Shown here piece after piece: positions 8,029-64,000 of a stretch of DNA of 64,000 nt. The stretch's first letter is position 1; each line of letters begins with the position of its first letter. Origin of the DNA: Candidatus Woesearchaeota archaeon (GTDB taxonomy: Archaea > Nanobdellota > Nanobdellia > Woesearchaeales > WAPY01); NCBI GenBank assembly GCA_049700835.1, contig JBNAUL010000001.1, positions 370,043 to 434,042 on the forward strand, read 5' to 3'. The notes below the pieces were generated by a model. The model was not told the DNA's origin. It searched no databases and saw nothing but the letters and a program-made list of their open reading frames with translations. The position numbers were made by a program, and so were the translations under genes.

Positions 8029-8032
8029 ATTT

Positions 8033-8545: not shown

Positions 8546-8598
8546 AGAGACCACCTTGATTAAAAAGATTTAAAAGTAAGATTAAATACTTTTTTATT

Positions 8599-9567: not shown

Positions 9568-9592
9568 TAAAATCAGAACTGCAAAAAGCAAA

Positions 9593-28004: not shown

Positions 28005-28085
28005 TAATTCGTGATAAAAATTTGAATAATAAAAATCTTTTGAATTTTAGAAAAGTTTTTATTTATACTTAATTTTTGTTATTTC

Positions 28086-31070: not shown

Positions 31071-31111
31071 AAAATAAAAAAATTAAAATATTACATGAAA
31101 TTTATTAAAAT

Positions 31112-32071: not shown

Positions 32072-32101
32072 TAAAAATATATCTTAAGATGTTTTAAATT
32101 T

Positions 32102-33544: not shown

Positions 33545-33607
33545 TTTTTATTTTATTATATCAAATACCAAAAAATTTATAAACTTAGAATTTAGTTTAT
33601 TATGTTT

Positions 33608-33718
33608 ATGATTAAAAATAACTTTTCAGAAGCGTTGGATAAATTTGAGAGATTTAAAATTAAAATTATCAGTTATTTTTTTAGGAAAATACCTCCTTTT
33701 TTTTCACCTAAACAGTAA
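33608..33718 (+). CDS. Possible 36 aa peptide
   Basis: MIKNNFSEALDKFERFKIKIISYFFRKIPPFFSPKQ, 24 nt after TATA TTTATAAA (33576-33583). Confidence 0.3.
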   Translation: MIKNNFSEALDKFERFKIKIISYFFRKIPPFFSPKQ

Positions 33719-33774
33719 TTAAACATGAACCAAACATAAATATTTAAAGATTGTTTTTTTAATCTTTATTTTCT

Positions 33775-34974: not shown

Positions 34975-35011
34975 TAAAAATAATAAAAACTTTTTTTATT
35001 TAATTCAGAAA

Positions 35012-36148: not shown

Positions 36149-36152
36149 AGTT

Positions 36153-39164: not shown

Positions 39165-39218
39165 TTTATATACCTTTTTTTATTTAAGATTTTTAAAATA
39201 AAAATCTGATGAAAATGT

Positions 39219-40682: not shown

Positions 40683-40756
40683 TGCTTCACCAGCTTTTTA
40701 ACTTGCTGAATAAAAATTAGCAAATTGTATATAATATAAAAAGCTTTTTAAATAAA

Positions 40757-42052: not shown

Positions 42053-42064
42053 TGAATGCAAATT

Positions 42065-43039: not shown

Positions 43040-43872
43040 TTTCCTTTACATTTACCAACAATCAAATACCCCTCATTTATCTTTAGTATTTTATCTAATT
43101 CTATTAGTGTTTTTATTAGGATGAATTTTAAAGTTTGTTTGAATTCTTTTTTGTCTTTTATCATTATTTTTATTTTGTTTATTATGTTTTTTGGTTTTAA
43201 ATTGAGTTTAAGATAGTTTTGTTTTATTTTTATTCTTATTATTTTTTCTATGTTTAGGTTTATTTTTTTGAGGTATTTTTTTATGAGATTTATGTGGTAA
43301 GCACGAACAATGTATTTTTGCGAGTTATTGTTTATGTTTCTTAATATGAAACTTAAACCTAAGAAACTATTTTTGTTTTCTATGCTGATTATTAGAAAGC
43401 TTTTCTCTTTTAAGAACTTGCTTAGATTTTTTATTATCGTAATGACTTCTTTATTGTTTTTTACATTTGTTAGGACGTTTATGAGTATTATTAGGTCGAA
43501 TTTTTCTTTTAGTTTTAGTTTTGTTAGGTCTTGGTTTATTGTTTTTAGTCTTTTTTTGATTTGGTAATATTCTTTTTTATGATCTTTTTTTAATCTGTTT
43601 TTTAGTTCTTTGAGCATTCCTTTTGAGAAGTCAACTGCTGTTATTTTTGTGTTTTTGAATTTTAGCAGTTTTGATGTTAGCCATCCATTACCGCAACCAG
43701 CTTCTAAGATTTCTATTTCTTTATTTTTTTCTTCAAATGATTTTATTATTTTAACAACTTCTTCATAAGTTTTCTCCCTGATTAAATCACTAATATTTCC
43801 ATAATATTCTTTTGCATAGTTTTTTGAAATCTTATCAAAAAATTTGATTAAGTCTTTTTTATTCATTTTCAA
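43036..43872 (-). CDS. Class I SAM-dependent methyltransferase
   Basis: ILEAGCGNG, AVDFSKGML, KFDLII. Confidence 0.88.
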   Translation of the reverse strand: MKMNKKDLIKFFDKISKNYAKEYYGNISDLIREKTYEEVVKIIKSFEEKNKEIEILEAGCGNGWLTSKLLKFKNTKITAVDFSKGMLKELKNRLKKDHKKEYYQIKKRLKTINQDLTKLKLKEKFDLIILINVLTNVKNNKEVITIIKNLSKFLKEKSFLIISIENKNSFLGLSFILRNINNNSQKYIVRAYHINLIKKYLKKINLNIEKIIRIKIKQNYLKLNLKPKNIINKIKIMIKDKKEFKQTLKFILIKTLIELDKILKINEGYLIVGKCKGK

Positions 43873-43956
43873 AATAATAACACCTAATTTTTGATGAACA
43901 TAAATTTTATAAACTTTAATTTAAATCTTTCTATTAATAAAAACTATGCTTGAAAA

Positions 43957-44138
43957 ATGAACCAAAATTTTTCAATAAATAAAATATATTTATATTTAAT
44001 CATTATTCTTTGTTTCTTGTTGGTTTTTCCTGCTTCTCATAGTACTTTATTAAAAAGGATATCAAAGAATTGAACTATAACTATGCAGCTTATTTTGCAG
44101 GAGAATTACACAATTTATATAAGAATAATGAAAATTAA
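43957..44138 (+). pseudogene. Possible frameshifted remnant of a secreted or membrane protein
   Basis: MNQNFSINKIYLYLIIILCFLLVFPASHS (signal-like) stops at 44073; an overlapping frame continues KDIKELNYNYAAYFAGELH to 44138. Confidence 0.3.
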
Positions 44139-48989: not shown

Positions 48990-49421
48990 ATGAAATCAGG
49001 ACAAGCAAGTAAACAGAAGATAAAATCAAAAAAGATTAAAGCCCAAGTAAACATTGAAATAATTTTCATAATCTTAATCTTGATTGTGGGAATAACGCTC
49101 TTTCTATTGCTCTTCAACTATAAATTTCCTTCTTCTGGAAAAACGCTGTACGAAAAAGCAGTGGAAAATTTAGGCGAGAAAATTTACATATCTGAATTAT
49201 TCTCAACTAAAACTTCTCCTAGAAATAAAACTCTTGAAGTTAAGAGAATCACAAATCAAAGCATTGTTTCAGAATACTTTGTTGATGCTCAAGGAAAAAA
49301 GGAACATAAAACAGAAATTTTAAACCTTTACTGCAATAATTCAAAAATTGTTTACATTAAACTGCCAAATAATGTAAGCATAGAATACATTTCCTTCAAC
49401 ATAACAAATTTTAAGAAATAA
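48990..49421 (+). CDS. Class III signal peptide (pilin-like) protein
   Basis: KKIKA|QVNIEIIFII: basic leader, Glu at +5, hydrophobic helix. Confidence 0.7.
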   Translation: MKSGQASKQKIKSKKIKAQVNIEIIFIILILIVGITLFLLLFNYKFPSSGKTLYEKAVENLGEKIYISELFSTKTSPRNKTLEVKRITNQSIVSEYFVDAQGKKEHKTEILNLYCNNSKIVYIKLPNNVSIEYISFNITNFKK

Positions 49422-49450
49422 AATTACTTAAAAATTTTAAAAGAATTAAA

Positions 49451-50122
49451 ATGAAAGTAAAAAAGCAAATAAAAAAACAAAAAAAGAATTCAAGTTATTC
49501 AATGACAATTACTTCAACAAGCATTTTAATATTTATAATAATAGTGCAGTTAGTAATTTTTTTTCTGATCACAAAAGCTTTGATTTTGAGATATGAAAAT
49601 TCTGAAAACAAGAATTTTGAGGAATACTATTCTGTTATGAACCTTCTAATAGATTCAGAAACAAAACTTTCATCTGCAACAACAAAAAACATCTTGCCTA
49701 ATGATGAGAAATTCAATGATATGTTCATAATGATTTATGAGGAGCAAGAGCCAACAAAATTCAGGATTTACAGCATAAGTTATATAAAAATGCTCTATAA
49801 TCTTGGGATGCTTGTAAATTCAAAAATTGATGATAAAAATTTCTTTATAGCTTATTGTCCTGAAATAAATTTAATAGAAGTGTATGAATCCAATCTTAAT
49901 AATGAAATTCTGAATTTCAAACCTTCAAATTCTTATTCTGTTTATAAAACAGGAATTTCGTGCAAGAATGTAGTTGACAACAAAGAAAGGGATTTTGATG
50001 TTTTGAATGGGATTTTTTTAAAAGAAAAAACAAAGTTAAAAAGAATTAATTTCAAAATTTTAGGAGCAGAGCTTGCAAACAATATAATGAAAGAATATGG
50101 AGTAAGAGCAAATGTTCAATAA
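49451..50122 (+). CDS. N-terminally anchored protein, paralog of 50112 (DUF3179-like, tentative)
   Basis: Lys-rich N-terminus, one TM, LVNSKI...IAYCP...EVYE...DVLNG. Confidence 0.6.
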   Translation: MKVKKQIKKQKKNSSYSMTITSTSILIFIIIVQLVIFFLITKALILRYENSENKNFEEYYSVMNLLIDSETKLSSATTKNILPNDEKFNDMFIMIYEEQEPTKFRIYSISYIKMLYNLGMLVNSKIDDKNFFIAYCPEINLIEVYESNLNNEILNFKPSNSYSVYKTGISCKNVVDNKERDFDVLNGIFLKEKTKLKRINFKILGAELANNIMKEYGVRANVQ

Positions 50123-50795
50123 AGAAAAAAGAAAGGAAAAAAGAACAAAATACAAGAAGAAAATTTTTAAAAATTTGAATTCTATCTTGATATTCATCGT
50201 TTTGGGACTCTCCATTATTAATGCTCTGATTATAACAAAAATTATTACAAATGAAACACAAATTAGAATTCAGGATGAGAAAATAAGAAAACTATACGAG
50301 GAATCCTTAATAATAAATGATTTGGCAAACAAAAACTATTTAAAAAATTTAGAATTTCAACAAAATAGCACGATGTTTTATGAATTGTATGTTGTTCTGC
50401 AAGAAAACAATGAAACAAAAGCATACAATATTGGAAAGATTGCAAAGGAATACTCTTATTTTGGAAATGTGATAAACGATGCATTCAACTCTAAAAATAT
50501 TGTTTTTATGCTTTGCCCGACATTCAATGTTTTATCAGTTTACGAGCGCGAAAACTTTAATTTTAATCCTTCATACATCAGATACTCCTGCTCAAGAAAT
50601 GCCGAGTGGACAATGTTTATGAACGAAAGAGGAGATTTATACGATGTTTTGTTTGGAACTTATAGAGGAAATTATTTTGAAAAAGAAGAAAGTTCAGAAC
50701 AAAACTCATCATCAAAAAGATTAAACCCCATTCATTATAAAATCATGAACAGAAAAGGAGTTTTGAGTTTGGAAAACATTAAGATTTATGATTAA
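50112..50795 (+). CDS. N-terminally anchored protein (DUF3179-like, tentative)
   Basis: One TM; ETKAY...VIND...MLCP...VYER...DVLFG. Confidence 0.6.
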   Translation: MFNKEKRKEKRTKYKKKIFKNLNSILIFIVLGLSIINALIITKIITNETQIRIQDEKIRKLYEESLIINDLANKNYLKNLEFQQNSTMFYELYVVLQENNETKAYNIGKIAKEYSYFGNVINDAFNSKNIVFMLCPTFNVLSVYERENFNFNPSYIRYSCSRNAEWTMFMNERGDLYDVLFGTYRGNYFEKEESSEQNSSSKRLNPIHYKIMNRKGVLSLENIKIYD

Positions 50796-50809
50796 ATTAT
50801 AAATAAAAA

Positions 50810-52576
50810 ATGAAAAGCGCAATAAAATCTAAAATAAAATCAAAAACTCTTTGTGCAGAAAAATTTTTAATAATCATAGTAATGATAACCTTGTATGCTA
50901 ATTTTTCAAGAGCTGAGAACTATGTAAGCTATGAAAAATACCATGACTCCTTTTCATTATTAATAAATGATTTTACAATAGAAAAGCTTTCTTACAACGC
51001 AGGAAAAACAATAAAAGGAAGTTTTCAAATTTCAATTAATTCTAACAAAACAAAATCGCCAATAACAGAAGCATATGTCTACATTAGAGTTTTATACTCG
51101 ACAAACCAAGAAAACATTGCTTATTCAAACTCTTACTTAACCCTGCATTCTCTAGGAACAAAAATTATTGGACCTTTTTCGCTTAATTTGCAAGATAAAA
51201 AGAGGTTTGATTTTGAATTCAAACTACCTGAGGAAGCTCCTGCAGGTAGCTATGTTATTGCTGTTTCTTCAAAAATGAAAGATTTTGACATTGCAGGACA
51301 CAATGAAATACAAGGGCTTTGGGGCAAGTCAATAGAGTTTAAGGTAAACAACAATTTTGAGGATTATGTTCTGTTTGATGTTTATAACATAAAAGTTAAT
51401 GATAAAAAATTCAACTTTGCAACATTCACTCCTGAATTTTCGCAAGAGGAAGAAATAAACATTAACATTCCAATAAAGAACTTTGGAGATAAAAAGTCTG
51501 TTAAAGTTCATTACAAATTATTTATCTACAATGAGGAAAAACACAATCAATTAAAAGAATTAATAGCAAAAAATGAAATCGCTGATAAAAAGTTCATTGA
51601 TTATTTTAACAATGTTGATTCAAAAGAAGGAAATTATGATTTCTATATAAAAGACAACTATGACTTAGAAATTAATCTTGGGAGATTAGAACCAGGTCTT
51701 TACGCTATTAAGCTATATCTCCAAGACGAGAACAATTTCACTGAAGAACTTGTTTTCAGAATACCAATAAACGGAATTGATTCAAAAATCTTGTTCAAAA
51801 AATTGGATCATTTTCCAATAAAAAAGGATGAAAAAGTAATGATTGGAATTGGATTCTCTAATCCAAGCACAAACGCTGCCCTTATGACAAACCCGTTGTT
51901 AACATCAGAAACTTACACTGGAAATTTTGAAGAAATAGGAACTTCTTACAGGAGCAATGCAATAATTGAAATTAATTTAACATCAAATTCAGAGACAATA
52001 TTTAATAAAAAAATACCCGTAATAGTAACTCCGCTATATGAAGCAATAGAAACAGGATTTGTGACTGAAAAAGACATCACAAATGCTGAATTGAGAGTAG
52101 CAATCTATGATGATAATGGATTAAAGGACTTTAATGTATTAAGATATGATTGTAGTTTATTCCCTGCAAAAAATCTAAAAGTTGATTATGAAGTTAAAAA
52201 CAAAAAATCAGGGATAAACTTGCAAGTAAGAGCCAAAGACGAGTTTTGCGAAAAAAAAGTAGGTTCAAGTTATTTAATAATTAATGATGATGAAAGCATT
52301 GTTTATGCAGACACTTTTACAACTCCTATTTCAAAGAATTTTGCATTAAAGCCTGGAAATTATAAAATAATTATAAAAGTTGAAGAGAAATTGTTTGAAA
52401 AGAAATTTAAGATTGAAGGCAATACAAACACGATGCCTGAAGAACAAAATAACAACTCTAGCGAACATAGAGTCTCAGAAAGCATTGCATGGATTTTATT
52501 TAATTCATTAACTGTTGCACTCATAATTTTAATAATCTCATTTTTTGTTTATAGTAAAAAAAAGAAAGAAAAATAA
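50810..52576 (+). CDS. Secreted, C-terminally anchored multi-Ig-like surface protein
   Basis: Signal peptide ending SRA; repeated PxGxY motifs (PAGSY, EPGLY, KPGNY); C-terminal TM plus KKKKEK. Confidence 0.7.
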   Translation: MKSAIKSKIKSKTLCAEKFLIIIVMITLYANFSRAENYVSYEKYHDSFSLLINDFTIEKLSYNAGKTIKGSFQISINSNKTKSPITEAYVYIRVLYSTNQENIAYSNSYLTLHSLGTKIIGPFSLNLQDKKRFDFEFKLPEEAPAGSYVIAVSSKMKDFDIAGHNEIQGLWGKSIEFKVNNNFEDYVLFDVYNIKVNDKKFNFATFTPEFSQEEEININIPIKNFGDKKSVKVHYKLFIYNEEKHNQLKELIAKNEIADKKFIDYFNNVDSKEGNYDFYIKDNYDLEINLGRLEPGLYAIKLYLQDENNFTEELVFRIPINGIDSKILFKKLDHFPIKKDEKVMIGIGFSNPSTNAALMTNPLLTSETYTGNFEEIGTSYRSNAIIEINLTSNSETIFNKKIPVIVTPLYEAIETGFVTEKDITNAELRVAIYDDNGLKDFNVLRYDCSLFPAKNLKVDYEVKNKKSGINLQVRAKDEFCEKKVGSSYLIINDDESIVYADTFTTPISKNFALKPGNYKIIIKVEEKLFEKKFKIEGNTNTMPEEQNNNSSEHRVSESIAWILFNSLTVALIILIISFFVYSKKKKEK

Positions 52577-52730: not shown

Positions 52731-54518
52731 ATGAGGATAAAAAAACAAAGCAAACATAATGAAAATAACAAGAATAATAAAAATATGCATAAGATTTCGT
52801 TGTTTTTTATTCTACTTATCATTATTTTATTTTCTTTATTAATTTCAAAAGAAAGTTTTGCAGTGCATGTTGTTTTTAAAACTACATGGATGAATGCAGG
52901 AGCAGATTTAGATGCTAAGTGGGGGATTTATTTTACAGACCAAGATGATAATTTACTTAGGGACGGTTCACAATTATGCATTGGTGATAAAATCTTTGTA
53001 AGAAAAAAAGCAGTTGTTAACTGGTTCTTTACAGGAGGACAATTTAGTTGTCCAGAAGGTTACTTTATAACAAGTGGAGATATGAATAAACTTTATTGTA
53101 GTTCGCAAAGCCAGAGAAAATGTCCTGATGCTAAATGTAGGCCTGGACTACACCAATACCTTACAACTTGTCCATGGTCTGCTTTAAATCAGCAAGAACC
53201 TGTAGTTGGTGATGTTTGGTGGGATTATCTCGAAGATGCTAAGTATGGGGGTACTATTGGAACTATGAACGATTACAGTTGTTTGGGTCTTAAATTGCTA
53301 AATCATGTTATTGAAGGAAGTACTACATATGGTGGAAGTTACAAAAAACAAGTACTAAACATCATATGCAACGGAACAACTTCTTCAGGTGAGGATGTTG
53401 CTACAATATCAAAAGAGCCGATTGATACCGGGATTGAATTATTGAAAGAAGGAGATATTGTTTTAGACGCTTCTACCTACACAAGCATTAATGATAATGC
53501 TACCATTTATTGCATTTTGTGGCATGCTGTTGCAGCTAACAGCAATGATAATCAATGTTTGAGAACAGGTCAAGCAGGAATACCGCAAAACTATTTTCCA
53601 GTAACCCTTGAGCCAGAATATTCTTCAATAACAATTCATGTTATTGATCCTAATTTAAAGCTTGAGCTTAGCAATTTAAAACTTGAAAAGGATGAGGATG
53701 GAAATGCTATTTTGAGTTTTAAATTAAAAAATGTTGGAAAGAATGATGCAAAGATAAAGGATTTATTCATCTTGGACAAGGATGAGAACAAATTCAATTA
53801 TGATTTAATTCTTGGAGATTTTGAGATAAACAAGAACGAAGAAAAAGAAATTATCTTAAAAATGAAGAATAAGTTTTGCGAGTTGGCTGATAAAGAATTA
53901 TTCTTGAGCATAAAGTATTCTGGCAATCCAGAGATATATTGTCATGGGAAACCATACATTGGAAGCATAAAAGAAAGGATACCTTTGCAACAATATCCTG
54001 CTTATGACATAATTGTTGGAGTTATTAACAGCAGCATTTTAATAGGTAATTTAAGCGTTGGCGATTCAATTTTGTTTGAGAGCAATGAATTGGTTGAGCA
54101 GATAAACGAGTTTTTAAGAAATTGCAATTCAACTGAATGCATTGTTCCAATAAACATTTCAATTTCTAATGAAGCTTCTTTGTTAATAACAAATCTTAAA
54201 GTTAGTTATTCAGAATGCTTGTTGTTAAAGGAGTTAGTTGCGCACATGCTTGCTTGCTGGGAAAAATCTTCTTACGGAAAATCAAAAAAGGATTTCATGT
54301 GCTACCAACTTGCTGTTCCAAAGGAATGCGCTAATACTAAGATAACTGCAGAGGATGTTACAGAAATAATGCTCAGCAACGAGGTCTGCGATGTTCTGGG
54401 TTTCAGCAATAAAAACTGCGGGACAAAAGACCAGGTTGATTTTGAATTGAACAAAATAATGGAAGAAGGAGATAACATACTAATTGAATATAAAAATGGA
54501 AAGATAGTTGTTAGTTAA
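52731..54518 (+). CDS. Secreted Cys-rich protein ending in the locus-specific pilin C-terminal module
   Basis: Signal peptide ending SFA; Cys-rich N-terminal half; Ig-like LKNVG segment; C-terminus HMLACWEK...CY...C...CG-KDQ...NILIEY...IVVS. Confidence 0.75.
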   Translation: MRIKKQSKHNENNKNNKNMHKISLFFILLIIILFSLLISKESFAVHVVFKTTWMNAGADLDAKWGIYFTDQDDNLLRDGSQLCIGDKIFVRKKAVVNWFFTGGQFSCPEGYFITSGDMNKLYCSSQSQRKCPDAKCRPGLHQYLTTCPWSALNQQEPVVGDVWWDYLEDAKYGGTIGTMNDYSCLGLKLLNHVIEGSTTYGGSYKKQVLNIICNGTTSSGEDVATISKEPIDTGIELLKEGDIVLDASTYTSINDNATIYCILWHAVAANSNDNQCLRTGQAGIPQNYFPVTLEPEYSSITIHVIDPNLKLELSNLKLEKDEDGNAILSFKLKNVGKNDAKIKDLFILDKDENKFNYDLILGDFEINKNEEKEIILKMKNKFCELADKELFLSIKYSGNPEIYCHGKPYIGSIKERIPLQQYPAYDIIVGVINSSILIGNLSVGDSILFESNELVEQINEFLRNCNSTECIVPINISISNEASLLITNLKVSYSECLLLKELVAHMLACWEKSSYGKSKKDFMCYQLAVPKECANTKITAEDVTEIMLSNEVCDVLGFSNKNCGTKDQVDFELNKIMEEGDNILIEYKNGKIVVS

Positions 54519-54552
54519 ATTTAAAATGAATAATTTTTTGCATGCATTTTTA

Positions 54553-55038
54553 TTAACTTACATATTTTCTCTTCCAAGTTACTGTTATAAAATTTAATCC
54601 TGTTTTTTTAACATTGAATTCAATGTTTGCAACATTCTTCTTTCCAATTGCGTTTTGAACTAAATAAAAGAGGTTTGTTTTTTCTGGAACAATTATTGAA
54701 CCCATCTTAACCTCGCAGAGCTTTATTTCCTCGCAATAATCCGCTTCGTTCTCAATCTTTATGCAGAGTTTCTTGCCTTTTTCTTCAACTCCCTGCTCAT
54801 CAACAACATAAATCTTTTCTGTTCTGTAAGGAAAAATCAATTGTTTTGTCTCGCTGGCTTCTATTCCAGACAGGCACGTAGTTTCAATAATCTGTTTTAA
54901 CATTGCAAAGTTTTCTTTTGCTTGCAGTATTTCTTGGCTTCTAATGTGCTTTCCCATCAAGGTATAAGCTGTTATAAAAATCATGCTTCCAACCAATAAA
55001 CCAGCAACCAGCCACATCCAAACCTCAACAGTTTCCAT
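54553..55038 (-). CDS. Pilin-like protein
   Basis: AGGTGA RBS gives start METVEVWMWLVAG; N-terminal hydrophobic helix, amphipathic helix, then a Cys-containing beta region. Confidence 0.6.
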   Translation of the reverse strand: METVEVWMWLVAGLLVGSMIFITAYTLMGKHIRSQEILQAKENFAMLKQIIETTCLSGIEASETKQLIFPYRTEKIYVVDEQGVEEKGKKLCIKIENEADYCEEIKLCEVKMGSIIVPEKTNLFYLVQNAIGKKNVANIEFNVKKTGLNFITVTWKRKYVS

Positions 55039-55061
55039 TATTCTCACCTAAAATTTTTTGT

Positions 55062-55517
55062 TTATCTTATTTCAACTATTTTTTTATCATAATTATACAG
55101 AATGACTGCTTTCTTATCCCCTTCATAAAAAACTGTTGCGTTTAAATTATGTTTAGTAACTAATTCGTTATAGAGTTCGTCTTTTTTTGGCCCGCAGTCA
55201 TTTGGCAGAAATATTACATAGCAGGTTTCTTTTATAGTTCCTTCATCTCCGTGCTGTTTGCAAAGCTTTGCATGCTTTATTATTTCTGATTTTGCATCTT
55301 CGCAAGTAGCGTTTATTGTCCCAACATCTTTTATTAATTCCTCTTTTTGCTCGCAAGTTCCTGTGAGTTTGCATAAAAATTTTTGACTGCTTAGAAAATT
55401 TTTTGAAATTAGAATTACTACAAGCATCGTAACTATCGTTGCTATTAAAATAATAAAGATTAACTCAACAGACATTGTTAACCCAAATTTATTCTTTTTT
55501 ATTTTTTTGGTTTTCAT
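55062..55517 (-). CDS. Class III signal peptide pilin-like protein (minimal form of the shared module)
   Basis: KKNKFG|LTMSVELIFII; EIIKHAKLC...CY...P-x-x-C...ILYNYDKKIVEIR. Confidence 0.7.
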   Translation of the reverse strand: MKTKKIKKNKFGLTMSVELIFIILIATIVTMLVVILISKNFLSSQKFLCKLTGTCEQKEELIKDVGTINATCEDAKSEIIKHAKLCKQHGDEGTIKETCYVIFLPNDCGPKKDELYNELVTKHNLNATVFYEGDKKAVILYNYDKKIVEIR

Positions 55518-55544
55518 AAAAACACCTCTTTTAATACTTTTAAT

Positions 55545-55643
55545 NNNNNNNNNNNNNNNNNNNNNNNNNNNNNNNNNNNNNNNNNNNNNNNNNNNNNNNN
55601 NNNNNNNNNNNNNNNNNNNNNNNNNNNNNNNNNNNNNNNNNNN
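55545..55643. other. Assembly gap (N run)
   Basis: N run in a T-rich spacer, flanked by TTTTAAT on both sides. Confidence 0.97.
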
Positions 55644-56039
55644 NTTTTAATTGTTCAACCAAAATAAAAGACTTTTTTTCACAGATTTTTTATATTTTTA
55701 TAATTATTTTTTTATTAGTTTATATTTTCTTTAGACATTATCTGCTTGTTTTACATACTTTAATTTTAACTTTTCATTTTTTTTATATTGTATGCACGAC
55801 TTTATTATTCTTATTTTATTTCTCTTCTTTTGTTTTTTATTATCTTTTTTATCTTATTTATTTTTTTGCTTTTATTCTATTTTTCTTGCGTTTCTTATGT
55901 TTCTTATTATTAGCTTTTATTTCACTTTTTTATTTTGATTTTTTTCTCTTTCTAACTTTATTTTTTTTTCTTTATTGTCTTAGTTATTTTTTTCTTTCTT
56001 GTTTTTTGGTTTCTTGTTTTTCTGTTTCGAACTTTAAAA

Positions 56040-56501
56040 TTAAATTCCTACTCTTGGAGGATTTGCCATCAAATCATAAACATCCTTAAATAAGGGCCAA
56101 ATTATGAAAACAATAAAAAAGACAAGTATTATTATCATAAATAAGATTAGCAAAGTTCTTATGAATTTTGAATGAGGAGTTTCTTCTTTTTTTTCTTCTT
56201 TTAAATTCTTTGCTTCTTCAATAGCCCTTGGCTTTTCCAAAACAGAGTTCCCGCTTGTTGTTGCATTTTTTTGCATTTCATTTACGTCGATATTTTTCTG
56301 CGTTTCAACATTTTTAACGCTTTGATTTATTTTTTCATTTGCTATAATCTGAACAATTTCGTTAGCGCTCAATTTTTTTAGATTACCAAAGAAGTCTGTT
56401 TCGTAAACTTCATAATCATCGAGTTCTCCAAGAACTTCTTTTGCTTCTGACAAAGCATTAAATTCTTTGTAAGTTTTTGGATTCTTAATAATATAACTCA
56501 A
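56040..56501 (-). CDS. Hypothetical protein with a C-terminal TM anchor
   Basis: Soluble N-terminus, charged linker, one TM; overlaps the stop of 56498. Confidence 0.7.
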   Translation of the reverse strand: MSYIIKNPKTYKEFNALSEAKEVLGELDDYEVYETDFFGNLKKLSANEIVQIIANEKINQSVKNVETQKNIDVNEMQKNATTSGNSVLEKPRAIEEAKNLKEEKKEETPHSKFIRTLLILFMIIILVFFIVFIIWPLFKDVYDLMANPPRVGI

Positions 56502-58357
56502 CTTACAATCACCTTCTTTTCTTTTGAGTTGTATTCAATCAAAATGTTAGTTTTTCCTGATATCTTTGATATTGAAATCTGATCCTTGCTTCCGCATCCA
56601 AAATCAGAGTTTTGGATTATGTTGCACCACTTTCTGTTTATGATAATGTTAGTTATTGATTTTTCATCTATAATTTTATTAAAAGCATAATCTTTTGGTA
56701 TTGGTATTTCTTTGCACATTAAACCATAGTTTAATTTTCCTCTCTCGCTTCTCTCCCAACAGTCAATTATTTCATTCGCTATTTCAGGAAGCATGTTGTA
56801 AGATTTATAGTCTATTGTTAAATTTTTTATCTTCAATTTCACATTTTCAGCTTCAATTTCAATCTTTAAATCGCATTCTTCATCGCATTTTGTTTTGTTT
56901 AGTTCTTCAATTAAAGCATCCCTTATGTCTATTTCTTCTTCAGGTCTTGTTAAGTTCAATTCTTCAATGTTCCAATTTTTATCTCCTAATTTAATACTTA
57001 TGTTCTTTGCAGGCATCTTGTACTCAATAAGAAGTTGTTTAATTGATAATCTTCCAGGAGTTGCATTGATGATAATGTTAATCTCACATAAGTCTTCATT
57101 GCAATCATTAAGAGCTTCTTTTATTGAGGTAGTATTAAGGTTAACTGTAACTGTTTCTATTTCATCTGCATAAAATTCGGGCTCTGTGTTATTTAATAAG
57201 TAAACATTTATGTTTCTTGCAATTAAAAAAGTCTTTATTAAAAATTCTACAAGATTATTGTAAAACTTAAAGTCATTGTTATCTTTGCATTTTGACATTA
57301 AGTTGTAGTGCATAGAGTCAGAATCAAAAAACAAATTTCCATACGATGAGTCATTACTAAATGCCATCAAAGGATTGTTGCTAAAAAAAAATGCTTTTGT
57401 AATGTTAGAACTGCTTGTTTTTATTAAAGCACTGCTTCCAGAAAAACTCAGTTTTTCAGCATCCTTTAAGAAATCAAAGTCAACGCTTGAAGCTTCTGAT
57501 TTATTAATGCAAGTTTTAGTTGTTGCCTTTGAACTAAACTCAAGATTAAACTTCTTTGTTATTTTGTTTAATTCATTAAAGCAATTATTATCTGCATCTG
57601 CAATAAAGGCAATGCCATGGCCTGCTAAGTAATAAGCATAAGTAGCATTAATCTCTTCTTCAGAAAAATTTATTGGGTTGCAACCGCTTATGATTAAAAC
57701 AGCGTCATAATTTTTTAAAAACTCTGTTTTGAGCTCATTAGTGCTAATCCTTGTTTTATATTCTTGCTCAAAATTCTCAGTATAAAAACTTGTCATGTCA
57801 AAATTAGCAAGCCCTTGTGTTAAAACATAAGTGAGTACTCTTGGAATTCTTGTTTCTATTTTCAGATAAGCATTTATTAAACTTGCATTTTTTGGAATTT
57901 TGAATTTTAACTCAACAGGTTCTCCATAAAAAACAATCTGCCTTTCAGACAACTGATCAGAAAAAGTGCTTATTGTTTGTTTTGGATTTTCTATGAAAAA
58001 ACTTGCTTTCATCACTTCTGCTTCAGGACTTATTTTTATGCTTAAACTCTGCCTTTTGTTTTTCATAAAATCAAGAATAAAAGATTTTTCTCTGTTGTAA
58101 AAATTTTCCATAACGAATTCTTTTTTCTCAATAGGGTTTAGTTCCATTTTAGTATAGTTGCAAAACTCTGGCAATGATTTCACAAAAAATCCTCTAAAAG
58201 GAGTTATTATGCTACAGTACACTCTTTGAGAACTTGGCATTTTAAAGAACAATATTAAAGCAAGCACGATTGCCATAACTGTAATTACAACGGTGAACAA
58301 AAAATTCACAGGGATGTCTGCCCTCTTACAACTTCCTGCTTGCTTTACCTTTCTCAT
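56498..58357 (-). CDS. Large class III signal peptide pilin-like protein with nested inserted domains
   Basis: CKRA|DIPVNFLF; shared C-terminal Cys module; central alpha/beta domain. Confidence 0.75.
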   Translation of the reverse strand: MRKVKQAGSCKRADIPVNFLFTVVITVMAIVLALILFFKMPSSQRVYCSIITPFRGFFVKSLPEFCNYTKMELNPIEKKEFVMENFYNREKSFILDFMKNKRQSLSIKISPEAEVMKASFFIENPKQTISTFSDQLSERQIVFYGEPVELKFKIPKNASLINAYLKIETRIPRVLTYVLTQGLANFDMTSFYTENFEQEYKTRISTNELKTEFLKNYDAVLIISGCNPINFSEEEINATYAYYLAGHGIAFIADADNNCFNELNKITKKFNLEFSSKATTKTCINKSEASSVDFDFLKDAEKLSFSGSSALIKTSSSNITKAFFFSNNPLMAFSNDSSYGNLFFDSDSMHYNLMSKCKDNNDFKFYNNLVEFLIKTFLIARNINVYLLNNTEPEFYADEIETVTVNLNTTSIKEALNDCNEDLCEINIIINATPGRLSIKQLLIEYKMPAKNISIKLGDKNWNIEELNLTRPEEEIDIRDALIEELNKTKCDEECDLKIEIEAENVKLKIKNLTIDYKSYNMLPEIANEIIDCWERSERGKLNYGLMCKEIPIPKDYAFNKIIDEKSITNIIINRKWCNIIQNSDFGCGSKDQISISKISGKTNILIEYNSKEKKVIVS

Positions 58358-58368
58358 TTTAAGATTTT

Positions 58369-59247
58369 TTAACTTACTATTATTTTCTTTTTTTCAGCAT
58401 CGTATTCAATCATGATGTTTGTTCTGCTTGTTATTAACTTAAGATTGTATTCAATGTTGTCTTCTTCCCCGCAACCATAATCATTATTTCCAATTATATA
58501 GCATAAACCTTGCTCTTTTATTACTCTTGTTATTGAACTCTCGCTTGTTTTTTCATCTTCGCAAAACTTTGGAACAACTATTTGAAAACAGATTATATTT
58601 TTAGCATAAGAACCCTTTTTTGTTTTATCCCAACAGGCAAGGATGTGCGCAAGCAGTTCTTGTTCAAGAAAACACTCTTCGTAGGCAATTCTTGGATTTT
58701 TAACTAACAATGTTCCTGAAGAGGAATTCAATTCAAGGATTAAATTTGTTGCATTGCACTCCTCAAAATCGCTTTTCTTTAACATTATTTGTGATTCAAC
58801 ATTATCAATTACTTTAATGTGATTTGTTTTTTTGCAAAAACTAATGCTAAAGCTAATATTCGCTTCAGAAGAAAAATTAAGTGCGAGTTCTCTTATCTTT
58901 TCTGGTTTAATGTTAAAGGTTAAATTTTGTTTTTTAGAATCTGAAAAATTCAGCATTTTAAACATGCTGCCATCGTCAAACCTTTCTAAGAAAATTTCCT
59001 TTGGTTTTATTGTTCTTGTTTCAAAAGCACCTTCATATTTGCAGAACTGAGAATCCTGCCTAAATGTTTTTGGTATGAACACACTTGAATGAACATAAAA
59101 AACTGTTTTGCAATATATTTCCCTTGCAAATCCAGTTAGATTCCTTGAAAAAAGCGCTGTCAAAAACATTATGCTTATTACAACAATAACAACTGCAAAT
59201 ATTATCTGTATGCTTAACTCTCCATTTTTTAAATCAAAAATTCTCAT
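58369..59247 (-). CDS. Class III signal peptide pilin-like protein
   Basis: LKNG|ELSIQIIF; YC...FC pair after the TM; shared C-terminal module. Confidence 0.75.
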   Translation of the reverse strand: MRIFDLKNGELSIQIIFAVVIVVISIMFLTALFSRNLTGFAREIYCKTVFYVHSSVFIPKTFRQDSQFCKYEGAFETRTIKPKEIFLERFDDGSMFKMLNFSDSKKQNLTFNIKPEKIRELALNFSSEANISFSISFCKKTNHIKVIDNVESQIMLKKSDFEECNATNLILELNSSSGTLLVKNPRIAYEECFLEQELLAHILACWDKTKKGSYAKNIICFQIVVPKFCEDEKTSESSITRVIKEQGLCYIIGNNDYGCGEEDNIEYNLKLITSRTNIMIEYDAEKKKIIVS

Positions 59248-59311
59248 TTTAATCTTCTTAACTCCTCTTTTTTATTCAGCTTTAAACAATATTAAAAATG
59301 ATATTAAAATT

Positions 59312-59668
59312 TTAATTCAAAACCTTTATGTAGCAAACCATTTTTTTTGAATAGACTTTTAGCGTTGCATCTCCTTTGATAATCTCACTTAAATTAATTT
59401 TTGTTTTTTCATTGTTAAAATCCTCCTCCGTTATGTTATCTGATTTTAAGCTTAAATCAACAATGAAACAATCCTGGTCATAAGAACCTTTGTTTAAACA
59501 ATTCCTGCACAGATTTTCAAGTTTTGTTACAACTTCTAATTTTTCCCCAACAATCTTTTGTTCCTTATTGAGTTCTTGATTAGGCATGTGCTGTATTGCA
59601 AAAATCAAAAGCAGGATTATTATTACAATTGCAACCATTATCATCATGTATTTGAAAAGCTCATCCAT
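59312..59668 (-). CDS. Small pilin-like protein
   Basis: N-terminal TM; LENLCRNC...DCF resembles a reduced version of the shared module. Confidence 0.55.
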   Translation of the reverse strand: MDELFKYMMIMVAIVIIILLLIFAIQHMPNQELNKEQKIVGEKLEVVTKLENLCRNCLNKGSYDQDCFIVDLSLKSDNITEEDFNNEKTKINLSEIIKGDATLKVYSKKMVCYIKVLN

Positions 59669-59711
59669 TTTAATCTTCTTTTTATGGTTTTATAATCTTT
59701 TATTGTTTTTA

Positions 59712-61856
59712 TTAAGGAACGCCAGGAGTTGTTCCTAACTCAAACGATGTTTTAATAATGCCTTTCAAAACTACAACTCCAATTATGCTTATCATGCAGT
59801 AAATTACTGTTGCCGTTAAAACATTCTTTCCAACATTTATGTCTGTTTCAACATCGTCAAAACCATTTTCAACAATAGTTGCCAATCTTGACAACAAGAC
59901 AACAGCTTCAATCATGTAAATTCCTACCAAAACTTGGAATAAAGTTGGAGGAGTTATCTTTGCAAAGTTTATTAAATTTGTAAAGAAATTTGCTCCTTGA
60001 GTGGCTTGAGTGAATGCACTCAGCAGATTCTTCATTATCTGTTCCAGCTGCTCAAACATTTTGTAAAGAGCTTCAATAATTATTAATGTCAATGAACCAA
60101 CAATCGCTGCAATAAAAGGGCTCATTATTTTTGCCTGCATCTTAACAGAACTTACAGTTTCTGCAAGCAGATCATAAATAAGTTCTTTTATCTTTTTTAC
60201 ATTGTCAAGATAGATTGAGATTTTGCTCATTATGTTATAAACAACATGAGCACCTTTTTTAGCACTTTCAGTCATTATTAACATTATTTCTTTTAAGATA
60301 ACAGAAGGATACTCTAAAATTATTCCTTCATTACTGTCAAAAACTGCTTGTGAGAATGTTTTTCCAAACTTTTTCATCTTATCAAGAATTCTTGAGAAGA
60401 AAGTATAAATCTGCCTTTTTTTAAGGTTTAAGAGTTCATAGTTTGCTATGAATTTTTCAACAGCAATCTCAACAGGAATGTTCTCTGTGAATTGATTTGA
60501 GAGTTGAAATAAAGAAACAGTAAGGTCATCCTCAATTTCAACAACCTGATCTCTTACTCTTTTCTTTTGTATGCTTCTGCCATAAAACAAGATGAATATT
60601 CCAATTGCCAAACCAACAGGAATTGTTAAAGTTTTAAGCATGTTAGCAAGTTCGTATTCTTCTTTGACAGTGCTTGGAACTTCTGCTCCTTGAGGTAGAT
60701 TTTTTGTTTCATTGTAAAGTGGAATTGTCTTAAAGAATAAGTGTATCAATCCAGGAGACATGATTATCAAAGCAAATATTATTGATGCGTAAAGTAAATT
60801 TATAGAGTATTCTTTGCCCTTTATTTTCAGGCTGTAATGATTCTTTTTTGGAAGCCCTTTGACTAAACTGACATCAGGAGCTGAAAAAGCTCCTGGTCTT
60901 TTTGAGAGTATTCTCTGAGACATAAACCAAATCAGCGATGGCAGAACTATTATGTAGCCAAAGAACAAGTATGAAATGTTTATTGATTCTGACATAAAAA
61001 CGCTCATCATAGGAAAAGCCAACAAACCAACTAAAGGAAGCATCAAACCAAAGGTGTTTATAATCAGCACAGGCATCTTTAAATCATGAGAATAATGTTT
61101 CATCTTTTCATAAGTGTCGTCCAAGATGGAATTCAATGTTTTATCAAGAATTCTTTCTTGGTCTTCCTTTGTTTGTTGCAGGACTACTGTTTGCAAAATC
61201 ATGAAAGCTTTTACAAAATCCTTATTTCTTTTCATCCATAGAGGGATGAACATTCTTGTGGCATCTTCGATAGAATTAACCTTCTCGCTGTCCAACAACC
61301 AAATTATTGTCTTTAAGTCCTTTCCCAAGCATCCTGAAAGGTGAGAAGCGGCAAATAGAACAGCATTTTCAAGAACAGGATTAACCCTCATGTAAATCGT
61401 CATGTAGAGTATTGCCAACAATGATTCTTCTTGGGCTTTTATCCTTGTAATCTCAGCAGAGTAGTCAGGATAGCTGTAACAGACATACGCTAAGAAAATC
61501 CCAACGAGCATCATAAAAAAAGCCATCCCCTTGTTGTTTAAAATCAAAAATGGAATTGCTCCCAAGCTTGAGAGCAAAAAAGCCATAATTGAACCTGCAA
61601 AAACAGAACCGCTCGTTGCATTTATAGAAGCAATCTCTAAACCTTCTTCAATGCTTTTGATTTTTTTGTTCTTAAAAAACGGAAGCAATGTTGCTGAAAA
61701 ATCGCAATACTTTTCAAAGAATGTTGAGAACTTCCTTGACTCTTTCTCTTCCTGCACAAAGGTCTGATAAGTGCCTGAGATGATTTTGCTTTCAGAATCT
61801 GTTCTATCTCCTAACCTCTTGCTAACCATCTGTTCTATTTCTTCAATAGAGCTCAT
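59712..61856 (-). CDS. Type IV pilus membrane platform protein (TadC/ArlJ, T2SS F family-like)
   Basis: Two helical cytoplasmic domains (NPVLENAV and NIPVEIAV), each followed by TM clusters; located among pilin-like genes. Confidence 0.75.
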   Translation of the reverse strand: MSSIEEIEQMVSKRLGDRTDSESKIISGTYQTFVQEEKESRKFSTFFEKYCDFSATLLPFFKNKKIKSIEEGLEIASINATSGSVFAGSIMAFLLSSLGAIPFLILNNKGMAFFMMLVGIFLAYVCYSYPDYSAEITRIKAQEESLLAILYMTIYMRVNPVLENAVLFAASHLSGCLGKDLKTIIWLLDSEKVNSIEDATRMFIPLWMKRNKDFVKAFMILQTVVLQQTKEDQERILDKTLNSILDDTYEKMKHYSHDLKMPVLIINTFGLMLPLVGLLAFPMMSVFMSESINISYLFFGYIIVLPSLIWFMSQRILSKRPGAFSAPDVSLVKGLPKKNHYSLKIKGKEYSINLLYASIIFALIIMSPGLIHLFFKTIPLYNETKNLPQGAEVPSTVKEEYELANMLKTLTIPVGLAIGIFILFYGRSIQKKRVRDQVVEIEDDLTVSLFQLSNQFTENIPVEIAVEKFIANYELLNLKKRQIYTFFSRILDKMKKFGKTFSQAVFDSNEGIILEYPSVILKEIMLIMTESAKKGAHVVYNIMSKISIYLDNVKKIKELIYDLLAETVSSVKMQAKIMSPFIAAIVGSLTLIIIEALYKMFEQLEQIMKNLLSAFTQATQGANFFTNLINFAKITPPTLFQVLVGIYMIEAVVLLSRLATIVENGFDDVETDINVGKNVLTATVIYCMISIIGVVVLKGIIKTSFELGTTPGVP

Positions 61857-61857
61857 T

Positions 61858-63309
61858 TTAACAACACTTCACTTTTTCACATGGTGGTGGTGGTGGTGGA
61901 TCAACTAAATGTTCTAAAAATACATGTGCTTTTATTACAAACTTTAAATTTTTGAATTCAGCGCTTCCAACAGGATTTTGATATTTATAATCAATGCACC
62001 TTATATCGGTAACAAACTCGATAGTGTGATTTTCTCCAAAACCATGGCATGGATTTCCAACTTTTGCTAAGCAATACTTGTCACATCCAGTATAAACATA
62101 ATCATCTGGATGCAATGGTGGCGGTTGGTAAGGAATTTGAACTTTACCGCAAGAAGGTTCTGGTTGTTTGCACTCAGGGAATGTTGACACTTCTGTATCA
62201 TCAGGATCATCAATATATTTTTCCTTGTAATTTCCTATAAAATTAAAATTGCTCTTTCCACATTGTCCTGAGACGCAAGGAATTTCAGGAATAAAAACAG
62301 AACCTCCCTCACATTTAGGACCCACTCTGTTAGGATCTAACCAATCGCACCCACTATCGCAAGTCCACCTATAACATTTATCAGGGTATTTAGCGCATTC
62401 TTCTGGGTTTGAATGACATTCATCAGGACAATAAGGCGGAGGACAAGGATTGCAACAGCAGATAAAAACTGTTCTGGCATATTTACAAAATATTGTATAA
62501 TTACAATCCACAAAATCATCCTTTTCTTTAAATCTCTTTTCTAAATCCTGAACAGAGAGTTCAACTATTTGATCTATTGTTTGCTCAGCAACAGCAGGTC
62601 CTTTTGTGCAGATGCTTCCTCCTATTCCTTGAACAAGTTCTTCTGCTTGGCAAGTATACTTGCTTAAAACAGCATCATCATTCCAAGCTTTTATTACTCT
62701 ATATAAGTACCAAAATCTTAATGGGTAAACAGTTATTGTATAAGAATGAACAACCCTTCTTTGCTCTTCATCTAAAGCAGACAACAAAATTCCTTCTTCT
62801 CTTCCAGAGCTGCTTACATCAAAACTCTCATCAGCCCTTGCAATATTGTTGTTTGGAGTTATATCTGGCAAATCAACCCAAACATTTATTTCACCCACAG
62901 TTCCTGACTCGTTGATTATTATTTTTCCAAAATTAACTCCTTTAACATTTGTAAGATAAGAATTACACTCACCTCTTGCATAAGTTTTAATGTTGCTTTT
63001 TACCTTCTCAAATTCAGGAGTTATTGGCTGTGCATAAACAACCCAATAACAATTAGAAGCTCCTCCGCAATTCAAAGCACTAATATAAGCTGCTCTTGTT
63101 GATGATTCTCTCAGCGCATGAAAAGCAAAATCCTTAAGCATCTCTCCATAACTTCCTAAGTAACCTCTTTGCAATTCTTCAGTGTAAGGTCTTTTTTCTT
63201 TAGCAGTTAAACTTATCAAATAAAACAAAATAAGCACTAAAACTATGAAAAAGATAGTCAAATAAGCAGATGCTTTCTTGATAAACTTTTTTGATTTCAG
63301 AACTACCAC
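61858..63309 (-). CDS. Cys/Pro-rich pilin-like adhesin candidate
   Basis: IKKA|SAYLTIFF; very Cys-rich C-terminal half ending PPPPPPCEKVKCC. Confidence 0.7.
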   Translation of the reverse strand: MVVLKSKKFIKKASAYLTIFFIVLVLILFYLISLTAKEKRPYTEELQRGYLGSYGEMLKDFAFHALRESSTRAAYISALNCGGASNCYWVVYAQPITPEFEKVKSNIKTYARGECNSYLTNVKGVNFGKIIINESGTVGEINVWVDLPDITPNNNIARADESFDVSSSGREEGILLSALDEEQRRVVHSYTITVYPLRFWYLYRVIKAWNDDAVLSKYTCQAEELVQGIGGSICTKGPAVAEQTIDQIVELSVQDLEKRFKEKDDFVDCNYTIFCKYARTVFICCCNPCPPPYCPDECHSNPEECAKYPDKCYRWTCDSGCDWLDPNRVGPKCEGGSVFIPEIPCVSGQCGKSNFNFIGNYKEKYIDDPDDTEVSTFPECKQPEPSCGKVQIPYQPPPLHPDDYVYTGCDKYCLAKVGNPCHGFGENHTIEFVTDIRCIDYKYQNPVGSAEFKNLKFVIKAHVFLEHLVDPPPPPPCEKVKCC

Positions 63310-63574
63310 CTCTTTTTTTAATTTGCATTCTTTTATTATTTTTTTGTTATCTTTATTATTATTTTATTATTTTTGTTCTTATGCTAATTTGATATTTTGA
63401 TTATTTTAACTCCTTTCTATTCAATGAATATTTTACTTAAATCTTCTTTTACTTTAGCTATTATTTTATTTTTAACTTATTTTTTATTAATCCATTTTTA
63501 CACTTTTTTATTTTTAAGATTTTATTTTTGTTTTTGCTTTTTTTTTATTTTGTTTTTTTTATTTATCAGTATTT

Positions 63575-64000
63575 TTAGCCCCTTGCAACCATTAAACTTC
63601 CTTCTCCTCTTTTTGAAGGACTGCAAGGCAAAGGATAAACAAAATCATAACTCATAAAATCTTTATCAGGAATTTTCTTCTCAGTTCCGTTATAAGAAGA
63701 GGTTATGTAGAGCGATTTATAAGTTATTTCAACATTCTTTGCGATTTGGTCCCTTAAAGCAGTAGGATTGTCAACATTAACTCTTATCATTTGGCCTCCT
63801 GTTTCTTCGCAAAGTTTTTTTACGCTTTCTTGCCATCTTTTAGGATCATTAAGAAAGAGCTGTGGAGGAACAAAAAAATAAACTCTAACACCATTCTCTT
63901 TTGCTGCTTTCAATCCAAGCTCTGCATAAGCAGGAGTGTTTCCAGGAGTATTGTGGCAACATCCGCCACAAAACAGCATGCGCCTACCATAATATACTAT
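63575..64000 (-). CDS. C-terminal part of a vWA-domain protein (start outside the window)
   Basis: Frame open to nt 64000; AAKENGVRVYF...LCEETGG is the typical vWA C-terminal pattern. Confidence 0.65.
   Translation of the reverse strand: MVYYGRRMLFCGGCCHNTPGNTPAYAELGLKAAKENGVRVYFFVPPQLFLNDPKRWQESVKKLCEETGGQMIRVNVDNPTALRDQIAKNVEITYKSLYITSSYNGTEKKIPDKDFMSYDFVYPLPCSPSKRGEGSLMVARG

Follow-up and report, generated by a model that had tools for sequence, protein, structure and literature searches.

What kind of cell-surface machinery might be encoded by a row of unannotated genes, most of whose products begin with a hydrophobic helix and several of which end in the same Cys-patterned domain? This question is raised by a stretch of 64,000 nucleotides from a Candidatus Woesearchaeota archaeon (assembly GCA_049700835.1, contig JBNAUL010000001.1, positions 370,043 to 434,042), which we refer to as the window. 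Nine head-to-tail open reading frames (ORFs) occupy positions 54553-64000 of its minus strand in the order J-I-H-G-F-E-D-C-B, and a further ORF, A, on the plus strand, converges on B as the last gene of a second operon starting at position 48990 (Table 1). A preliminary description of this DNA had proposed that A, C, E, F and G, whose coordinates and lengths (118-619 residues) we confirm, encode subunits of a new type IV filament (T4F) that share a C-terminal assembly module, display interchangeable domains and flank a TadC/ArlJ-like gene. The analysis reported here supports this idea in part, the central observation holding for four of the five genes. We consider it somewhat probable (roughly 0.6) that the minus-strand genes form a conserved operon of a very divergent T4F-like system of DPANN archaea.

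A Cys-Patterned C-Terminal Module Links Several Cluster Proteins

Pairwise BLASTP comparisons linked the C-terminal parts of three proteins: F and A are 36% identical over 133 residues (E 2e-27), F and E 30% identical over 196 residues (E 9e-23), and E and A 32% identical over 199 residues (E 7e-18). The C-terminal segment common to all three comprises about 130 residues, and E and F additionally share their first ~115 residues (E 2e-8). The motif originally read from these proteins was accurate. In 128 aligned segments, conservation reaches 98-100% for four Cys residues (the "CW" Cys, a second, a third and the "CG" Cys). The N-I-L-I-E-Y stretch and the V-S at the end are likewise conserved and serve, together with C-W and C-G, as further anchors.

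Reduced versions of the module had been suspected in C and G, and only that of C stood. With its membrane helix removed, the C family matched the module profile in hhalign with a probability of 96.5% (E 7e-10 to 8e-10, 92 columns), whereas the G family reached 0.6-0.9%. A match between G and C at 91.6% dropped to 3.1% when the membrane helices were left out, leaving a local helix-Cys likeness only, and G was rejected as a module carrier. B and D were likewise rejected as module homologues by profile-profile comparison, and an iterated hidden Markov model (HMM) of the module recovered only A, E and F from the window at E ≤ 10.

Searched against 1.84 billion cluster representatives, a profile built from A, E and F matched 128 proteins at E ≤ 1e-3; of these, 83 reached E ≤ 1e-10 and 6 reached E ≤ 1e-30 (individual family members are denoted P plus a number below). 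Named carriers are "hypothetical proteins" from Woesearchaeota, Nanoarchaeota or Aenigmarchaeota; the members of ten distant module clusters are also designated "hypothetical protein" only, one named member coming from Aenigmarchaeota. A single carrier is labelled Deltaproteobacteria, on a contig of 4.5 kb, a label that we ascribe to erroneous binning. To the extent that records are named, these assignments support a restriction of the module to DPANN archaea.

Neither Pfam nor NCBIfam contained a match for A, E or F, and the other cluster proteins gave noise only. PDB sequence searches with module proteins returned nothing below E 0.4, and an ESM Atlas search with the F module yielded no usable match. 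A Pfam scan of 42 long module homologues found no family in 38; the other four were three repeat or Cys-rich outliers (P0114, P0155 and P0169), which we regard as false positives, and one protein with a marginal Hemopexin match. Judged by these sequence searches, the module is an unannotated domain family, in agreement with the claim that it had not been described.

The Gene Order Recurs in Related Loci

Using H as the query and scanning one genome per species, we retrieved 27 related loci (L001 to L027). By record title, 13 belong to Woesearchaeota, two to Nanoarchaeota, two to an "archaeon", seven to an "uncultured Methanosarcinales" archaeon (L003, L005, L006, L013, L015, L022 and L024), one to an "uncultured archaeon" and two to Aenigmarchaeota. 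The H proteins of the four Methanosarcinales-titled loci present in the H tree (L003, L005, L006 and L015) nest among those of Woesearchaeota, and the Methanosarcinales labels are probably wrong.

The order J-I-H-G-F-E-D-C-B recurs across these loci. In L001, the orthologues are 66-81% identical to the window proteins and their order is conserved. Within the fetched loci, G was found in 21, F in 19, B in 14, C in 13, I in 10, E in 10, J in 9, D in 6 and A in one. G is the most frequent follower of H (19 of the 26 loci with a following gene), and a core of H, G, a short F and C is also present in the Aenigmarchaeota loci L025 and L026. In 18 of the 27 loci, a strong module ORF begins 174-1540 bp downstream of H; only 23 of the loci extend at least 1.6 kb beyond H, and these 18 are among them. 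Of the nine loci lacking such an ORF, four have less than 750 bp after H and five (L009, L013, L016, L019 and L027) at least 1.6 kb.

Six of the 27 loci also encode a T2SSE ATPase within 10 kb of H, and these loci occupy at least three separate positions in the H tree. In L027, only 19 bp separate the end of the ATPase gene from the H-like gene that follows; in L011, L014, L020, L023 and L024, it converges on H-G-F and lies within two genes of H. The claimed linkage of module proteins to type IV machinery is borne out by these neighbourhoods. In the latter five loci, the ATPase is followed by a conserved set of genes, none with a Pfam family, that encode a coiled-coil protein of ~145 residues, a protein of ~200 residues and three paralogous membrane proteins of ~190 residues; they may represent further machine parts.

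H Is Probably a Divergent Platform Protein

Homologues of H numbered 47 at E ≤ 1e-3, most of them 44-60% identical, and none is annotated or contains a Pfam domain. Searches with the H and F alignments did not reach beyond the single-sequence searches (48 and 5 proteins, respectively, again devoid of Pfam domains). The H profile is matched over its full length by the Aenigmarchaeota orthologues (E 1e-173 to 5e-101). For three orthologues, the top Pfam match is T2SSF (PF00482): L025 (E 0.0013), L026 (E 0.0018) and L027 (E 0.1). Each is matched in two stretches, and in L025 and L026 the matches cover profile positions 2-124 of 125.

ESM Atlas neighbours of H, with scores of 0.95-0.96, are archaeal clusters, one of them automatically named "GspF domain-containing" and two with T2SSF on 21-22% of their members. 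An AlphaFold model of H (predicted local distance difference test [pLDDT] 78.4, predicted template modelling score 0.74) is entirely helical and shows two series of long helices and bundles that resemble each other. The best match of the H profile among PDB sequences, a CTD kinase subunit (E 0.0053), was judged to be due to chance. Because the T2SSF matches of the orthologues, the Atlas neighbours, the nearby T2SSE ATPases and the all-helical model agree, we suggest, with fair confidence, that H is probably a very divergent T2SSF-type (GspF/PilC/TadC/ArlJ) platform protein. The preliminary description was correct in placing all its genes beside this one: they lie to the same side of H and no more than 7 kb away. 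The assignment of H to the TadC/ArlJ family is indirect.

Pilin-Like N-Termini of the Cluster Proteins

A hydrophobic helix behind a basic stretch, the last residue of which is G, A or S, opens the proteins of five families (F, E, C, I and J). The leader consensus of the module family is K-(G/A)-(D/E)-(I/L)-(S/A)-(I/V); the form K-(G/A)-(D/E)-I-S-I, seen in F and E, is well conserved, and the leader of J reads K-K-A-Q-S-A-E-F, as seen in the full-length J orthologue of L001 (379 residues), which carries the class III-like leader KKAQ-SAEF at its N-terminus. Across the module family, 98 of 125 proteins have a hydrophobic N-terminal segment, and a basic N-terminus precedes the helix in most carriers. 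B orthologues either start exactly with M-E-S-V-E(-V-W-M-W) or bear a KKGQ, KKGT or KRAM leader before E-S-V-E. This pattern, with a leader either present or precisely absent, likely marks a processing site, with conserved Glu residues near the mature N-terminus. B also gave a weak ComGD match (E 0.007; 16.8 bits vs. a cut-off of 70).

We propose that H forms a membrane platform and that the products of J, I, G, F, E, C and B resemble pilins, held in the membrane by the N-terminal hydrophobic helix behind a short basic leader. They may be cleaved by a class III peptidase, and the helix-first proteins would presumably be polymerised or docked through the N-terminal helix; the ATPase and the prepilin peptidase would be encoded elsewhere in the genome. 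In gspF-K and comGB-GG operons, a platform-like gene is followed by genes for small helix-first proteins. With seven helix-first proteins and a platform-like gene, the window operon resembles such platform-plus-minor-pilin operons.

Predicted Structure of F

A structure model of F, based on a 30-sequence alignment, reached a mean pLDDT of 84.9, with values above 90 for residues 80-292. It consists of a helix (residues 8-53; confidence 57-83), a β-sandwich (residues 76-191) and the module (residues 194-292), which is folded as helix, strand, helix and three strands (α-β-α-β3). Foldseek searches of the PDB matched the sandwich only (E 3e-5 to 3e-4), the related folds being carbohydrate-binding modules (CBMs; CBM11 and CBM6), BcsB, a hyaluronan-binding module, Cry-toxin domains and viral coat jelly rolls; searches of viral structures gave generic jelly rolls only. 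The jelly-roll has no Pfam match. The middle domain of F is thus predicted to adopt a CBM-like β-sandwich fold, and comparison with known structures, for which the preliminary description had suggested pilins as references, led to CBM-like and jelly-roll domains.

Relative to L001, H is 91% identical, E 74%, G 72% and F 66%, so that the cluster proteins change more quickly than H; within F, the sandwich (51%) is the fastest-evolving part and the module is 71% identical. Twelve cluster proteins contain 1.38 N-glycosylation sequons per 100 residues and 2.56% Cys, compared to 0.52 and 0.93%, respectively, in 13 housekeeping proteins, and by this composition the cluster proteins look extracellular. 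We picture the module as an α/β extracellular domain of ~100 residues, probably stabilised by two disulfides.

The preliminary description had regarded the module as a shared assembly core packing on the N-terminal helix. This idea was not supported: because, in the model, the sandwich intervenes between helix and module, the linker is predicted with low confidence, and the module is also found on the helix-less, apparently Sec-type protein A, our data argue that the module is not an assembly core on the N-terminal helix.

Architectures and Phylogeny of the Module Family

The module ends at most five residues from the C-terminus in 111 of 125 family proteins, and protein lengths cluster at 170-210, 280-315 and 650-740 residues, most architectures belonging to conserved classes of about 180, 300 and 670 residues. 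BLAST comparison of the window proteins with the module family revealed whole-length orthologues of F and three relatives of A (among them P0049, 81% identical, and P0088, 38% identical); E orthologues share the first ~170 and last ~230 residues of E. The middle region of E (residues about 170-400) is lineage-specific. When the middle regions of 29 long proteins were compared by BLAST, they fell into four clusters with 21, three, three (A-like) and two members, the last comprising the window E and P0050.

A module tree was computed from 59 segments, after exclusion of proteins without an N-terminal hydrophobic segment, segments covering fewer than 110 profile positions or with a domain E ≥ 1e-10, and three outliers. 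It splits into an E-type and an F-type clade (support 98/90). The E-type clade contains 22 long, three mid-length, two F-length and one short protein, the F-type clade 21 F-like, four long, four short and two A-like proteins. The module of A belongs to the F-type clade. Architecture labels change 12 times on this tree, compared to a mean of 26.2 after shuffling (none of 200 shuffles was as low). As the clades follow architecture, the family therefore appears to reflect mainly an old E/F duplication with conserved architectures. The idea of swappable cargo goes too far and holds in part only: conserved length classes and clades that follow architecture speak against it, and a few new combinations remain in its favour, namely A and the P0055/P0061/P0069 group (both on an F-type module) and the middle region of the window E.

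Different domains between an N-terminal helix and the module, as originally described, are found in E and F; A does not fit this scheme. The N-terminus of A has a short hydrophobic stretch and then S-F-A followed by V (V-L-A and S-M-A, each followed by V, in its relatives), from which we infer a Sec-type signal rather than a pilin helix. The module might be viewed as the distal C-terminal domain of one paralogous subfamily, with C as the minimal form, F as C plus a jelly-roll CBM-like sandwich, E as C plus further domains, and a copy transferred onto the Sec-secreted multidomain protein A. The inserted sandwich domains would then be the likely ligand-binding parts, possibly for glycans, and the module a conserved structural or docking end-piece.

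Weighing the Filament Model against Alternatives

A number of observations weigh against a T4F-like system. Regarding the platform, T2SSF gave no match at E ≤ 10 in the window H or in 21 other aligned members, and the matches of the orthologues stay below the gathering score (19.1 vs. 25.2 bits). Foldseek searches of the PDB with the H model found nothing below E 0.24 and ranked a PilC-containing pilus-machine model 27th (probability 0.38), and hhalign between the two halves of H detected no internal repeat (probability 0.5%). Regarding the remaining machinery, no ATPase lies within 10 kb in 21 of the 27 loci, and within the 64-kb window neither a T2SSE ATPase (tblastn) nor a prepilin peptidase of the A24 family (Pfam) was found. 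Regarding the subunits, a strict class III motif of the FlaFind type fits 36 of 98 proteins, and a looser criterion, [KR][GAS], applies to 81 of the 98 but also to 50 of 96 controls with an N-terminal hydrophobic segment. A leader is lacking from G in all 22 orthologues and from most B proteins, pilins are absent among the fold matches of the F model in PDB and viral structures, and A bears the module without a pilin helix, so that the module alone cannot define a pilin. None of 32 cluster proteins matches a Pfam pilin N-terminal family at E ≤ 1, and because no known pilin family matches them, their pilin status is something we infer.

Many of these points would be expected if the proteins were ordinary surface glycoproteins or adhesins on an uncleaved signal-anchor helix, with A being secreted, rather than filament subunits; the module would then be a disulfide-stabilised envelope domain, and H would insert or organise the proteins without polymerisation. 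The missing pilin family, the weak specificity of the leader motif, the lack of ATPase and peptidase genes in the window, the lack of a significant fold match for H and the module on the Sec-type protein A all favour this explanation, as does the adjoining plus-strand operon, which encodes Sec/anchor-type surface proteins. We nevertheless consider it rather unlikely, given that a T2SSE ATPase adjoins H or H-G-F in six of the 27 loci and at no fewer than three places on the H tree, that T2SSF is the top sub-threshold match for three H orthologues in agreement with the Atlas, that seven small helix-first proteins accompany a platform-like gene as in gspF-K and comGB-GG, and that the B-family leader is present or precisely absent.

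A more far-reaching version of the filament model can be considered, in which the module is a docking "carrier" domain, through which one DPANN filament would display interchangeable binding domains, and the H-G-F core would be the host-attachment organelle of these episymbionts. Binding domains could be built into C, F and E, or reside on the Sec-secreted A, which would dock module to module; the logic would be that of PilY1 on bacterial pili. We hold this proposal to be doubtful. If it were true, T4F surveys based on arCOG and Pfam would miss an H-G-F organelle conserved from Woesearchaeota to Aenigmarchaeota.

Alternatively, a T4F machine might build a short pseudopilus or a bindosome-like assembly, with F, E and A serving nutrient or glycan capture and not host attachment; a bindosome-like surface assembly has reportedly been proposed for the Sulfolobus Bas system. 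The CBM-like central domain of F, the presence of several different helix-first proteins per operon without an obvious abundant major pilin, and a large glycan-biosynthesis island suggested for the window (see below) would suit such a function. On the other hand, Pfam scans detected no substrate-binding-protein family, and a major subunit might be represented by G, which is small and the best conserved of the genes next to H. We regard this alternative as quite unlikely.

Finally, low GC content yields many long ORFs and an assembly gap lies inside the cluster, but the view that the shared pattern arose by chance or from the composition of an AT-rich genome, or that the ORFs are not genes, is already refuted by pairwise E values of 7e-18 to 2e-27, 83 library proteins at E ≤ 1e-10, L001 orthologues 66-81% identical in conserved order, and the confidently predicted fold of F. 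A conserved operon of a very divergent T4F-like system remains our preferred explanation.

Gene Content of the Cluster and Its Surroundings

The window is low-GC archaeal DNA (GC 0.26-0.34 across the cluster region) that also contains housekeeping genes of archaeal type as well as genes for Nop5, fibrillarin and a proteasome assembly factor (PAC2), and the nearest relatives of its proteins are named Candidatus Woesearchaeota. The features of the cluster are compiled in Table 1.

Table 1. Genes and module segments of the cluster and the adjoining plus-strand operon (window coordinates)
Feature	Position	Strand	Length or residues	Description
Upstream genes U143, U223, U227, U588	48990-52576	+		Apparent co-transcription with A
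A	52731-54518	+	595 aa	Apparent Sec-type signal, Cys-rich N-terminal region, CARDB-like β-sandwich, second sandwich, C-terminal module
Sandwich end and module of A	54123-54515	+	residues 465-595	HMM E 6e-43
B	54553-55047	-	164 aa	Pilin-like; conserved N-terminus ME(S/T)VEVWMW, Glu at +2 and +5; without module
C	55062-55517	-	151 aa	Basic leader and hydrophobic helix, then reduced module
Reduced module of C	55065-55349	-	residues about 57-151	hhalign probability 96.5%
D	56040-56501	-	153 aa	Soluble, conserved N-terminal domain, then a linker rich in Lys and Glu and a membrane helix at the C-terminus; Cys-free
E	56498-58357	-	619 aa	Leader KRAD and helix, Y-C...F-C loop, N-terminal β domain, middle region (about 170-400), second sandwich, module
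Sandwich end and module of E	56501-56887	-	residues 491-619	HMM E 2e-45
F	58369-59247	-	292 aa	Leader KNG followed by E, helix 8-53, Y-C...F-C loop, jelly-roll sandwich 76-191, module 194-292
Sandwich end and module of F	58372-58758	-	residues 164-292	HMM E 8.5e-45
G	59312-59668	-	118 aa	Leaderless hydrophobic N-terminus, small Cys-containing domain
H	59712-61856	-	714 aa	Polytopic all-helical membrane protein
I	61858-63309	-	483 aa	Leader KKA followed by S, then a helix; C-terminus rich in Pro; 6% Cys; partner of H, conserved upstream of it
J	63575-64000	-	141 aa	C-terminal part only; gene extends past window end

D is probably a cytoplasmic, tail-anchored accessory protein; in the six loci encoding it, D sits between E and C or directly after H. 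The spacer between D and C is long and A-rich and contains the scaffold gap (~100 N at about 55546-55643), compared to a spacer of 74 bp in L001. The C-terminus of I consists of a poly-Pro run and then C-C at the end, and the I orthologue of L004 (8150-9973, 607 residues) contains a Hint/intein-like insert (PF01079, E 4.5e-7). An intein is also found directly upstream of H in L014, where a LAGLIDADG intein splits a UDP-glucose dehydrogenase (positions 7147-9828).

Among the 27 loci, the plus-strand operon upstream of A was found only in L001, the closest relative. One of its products, U143, has an N-terminus like that of the F/E family (BLAST E 1.6e-8) but lacks the module. Two others, U223 and U227, are paralogous to each other and begin with a membrane helix, whereas U588 combines a Sec signal with a C-terminal anchor and gave weak CARDB/MG2-like matches.

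Farther away, positions 28000-44000 of the window have a GC content of 0.21-0.26 vs. 0.30-0.35 on the flanks. Encoded there are several radical SAM proteins of the B12-binding type and one of the SPASM type, together with a UDP-glucose dehydrogenase, a β-helix protein, a methyltransferase and large membrane proteins; the region looks like a surface-glycan biosynthesis island, possibly acquired. A sigma-70 promoter scan gave 52 hits vs. 49 expected, as by chance, with a model that is not applicable to archaea; a terminator scan gave 10 hits vs. 4.6 expected.

Comparison with Known Systems

A host-attached lifestyle is assumed for DPANN archaea. An ordered operon with a platform-like gene and seven helix-first proteins, found in two DPANN phyla, is a candidate for a DPANN surface or attachment structure. 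Because its components fall below family thresholds, standard screens would miss this operon. The module would represent a new small, Cys-stabilised domain family, and the lectin-like domains associated with it provide a set for binding studies. Should pilin status fail, a well-defined DPANN surface protein family would still be left.

No description of the module or the operon was found in the open-access literature searched. A precedent is provided by DPANN islands in which "dark matter" proteins with signal peptides, encoded beside FlaI/TadC, were predicted to be divergent pilins (Makarova, Wolf & Koonin 2019, PMC6393860), the same reasoning and prediction that we apply to unannotated DPANN proteins here; within the available part of that paper, no description of the Cys-patterned module, its classes or this operon was found. 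Our operon shares with archaeal T4F loci a polytopic platform-like protein followed by small proteins with a basic leader and helix, as well as, in some relatives, an adjacent T2SSE ATPase; it differs in that the platform falls under the Pfam T2SSF threshold, the pilin-like proteins match no family and the ATPase usually lies outside the locus (compared with loci in the accessible sections of Sivabalasarma & Albers 2026, PMC13705601). According to the same sections, DPANN rarely show ordered T4F loci, whereas platform and pilin-like genes form an ordered operon across the 27 loci described here; the main text, as far as it was accessible, contains 0 mentions of Woesearchaeota.

Two further publications belong in this context. 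A classification of archaeal T4F is said to have been established by Makarova et al. in 2016 and to be followed by the 2026 survey, and bacterial modular pilins were reportedly treated by Shahin et al. in 2023. In gspF-gspGHIJK and comGB-comGC-GG, a platform gene also precedes a row of pilin-like genes; these operons are bacterial, and no sequence relationship to the present genes has been demonstrated.

In functional terms, the nearest analogues are bacterial modular pilins and the PilY1 carrier-domain concept. Bacterial modular pilins, such as PilB (vWA module) and PilC (lectin module) of Streptococcus sanguinis, are helix-first subunits with extra domains and are expected at the filament tip, as far as the consulted part of Raynaud et al. 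2021 (PMC8179133) describes them. The helix-first proteins of the cluster resemble them in carrying additional, probably ligand-binding domains, such as the lectin-like sandwich in F. However, the bacterial subunits carry their functional module behind an entire pilin module, whereas here variable domains lie between the helix and the C-terminal module. F does not fit the modular-pilin definition: its helix is followed first by the jelly-roll and then by the conserved module, which places the variable part inside the protein, and a canonical pilin fold was not detected. A resembles the PilY1/PilC tip adhesins, in which, in the same part of that source, a conserved C-terminal "carrier" domain follows variable N-terminal domains on a non-pilin protein. 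A has the same arrangement of a conserved C-terminal domain and variable N-terminal domains; while the PilY1 carrier is a large β-propeller (IPR008707), the module described here would be an α/β Cys domain of ~100 residues.

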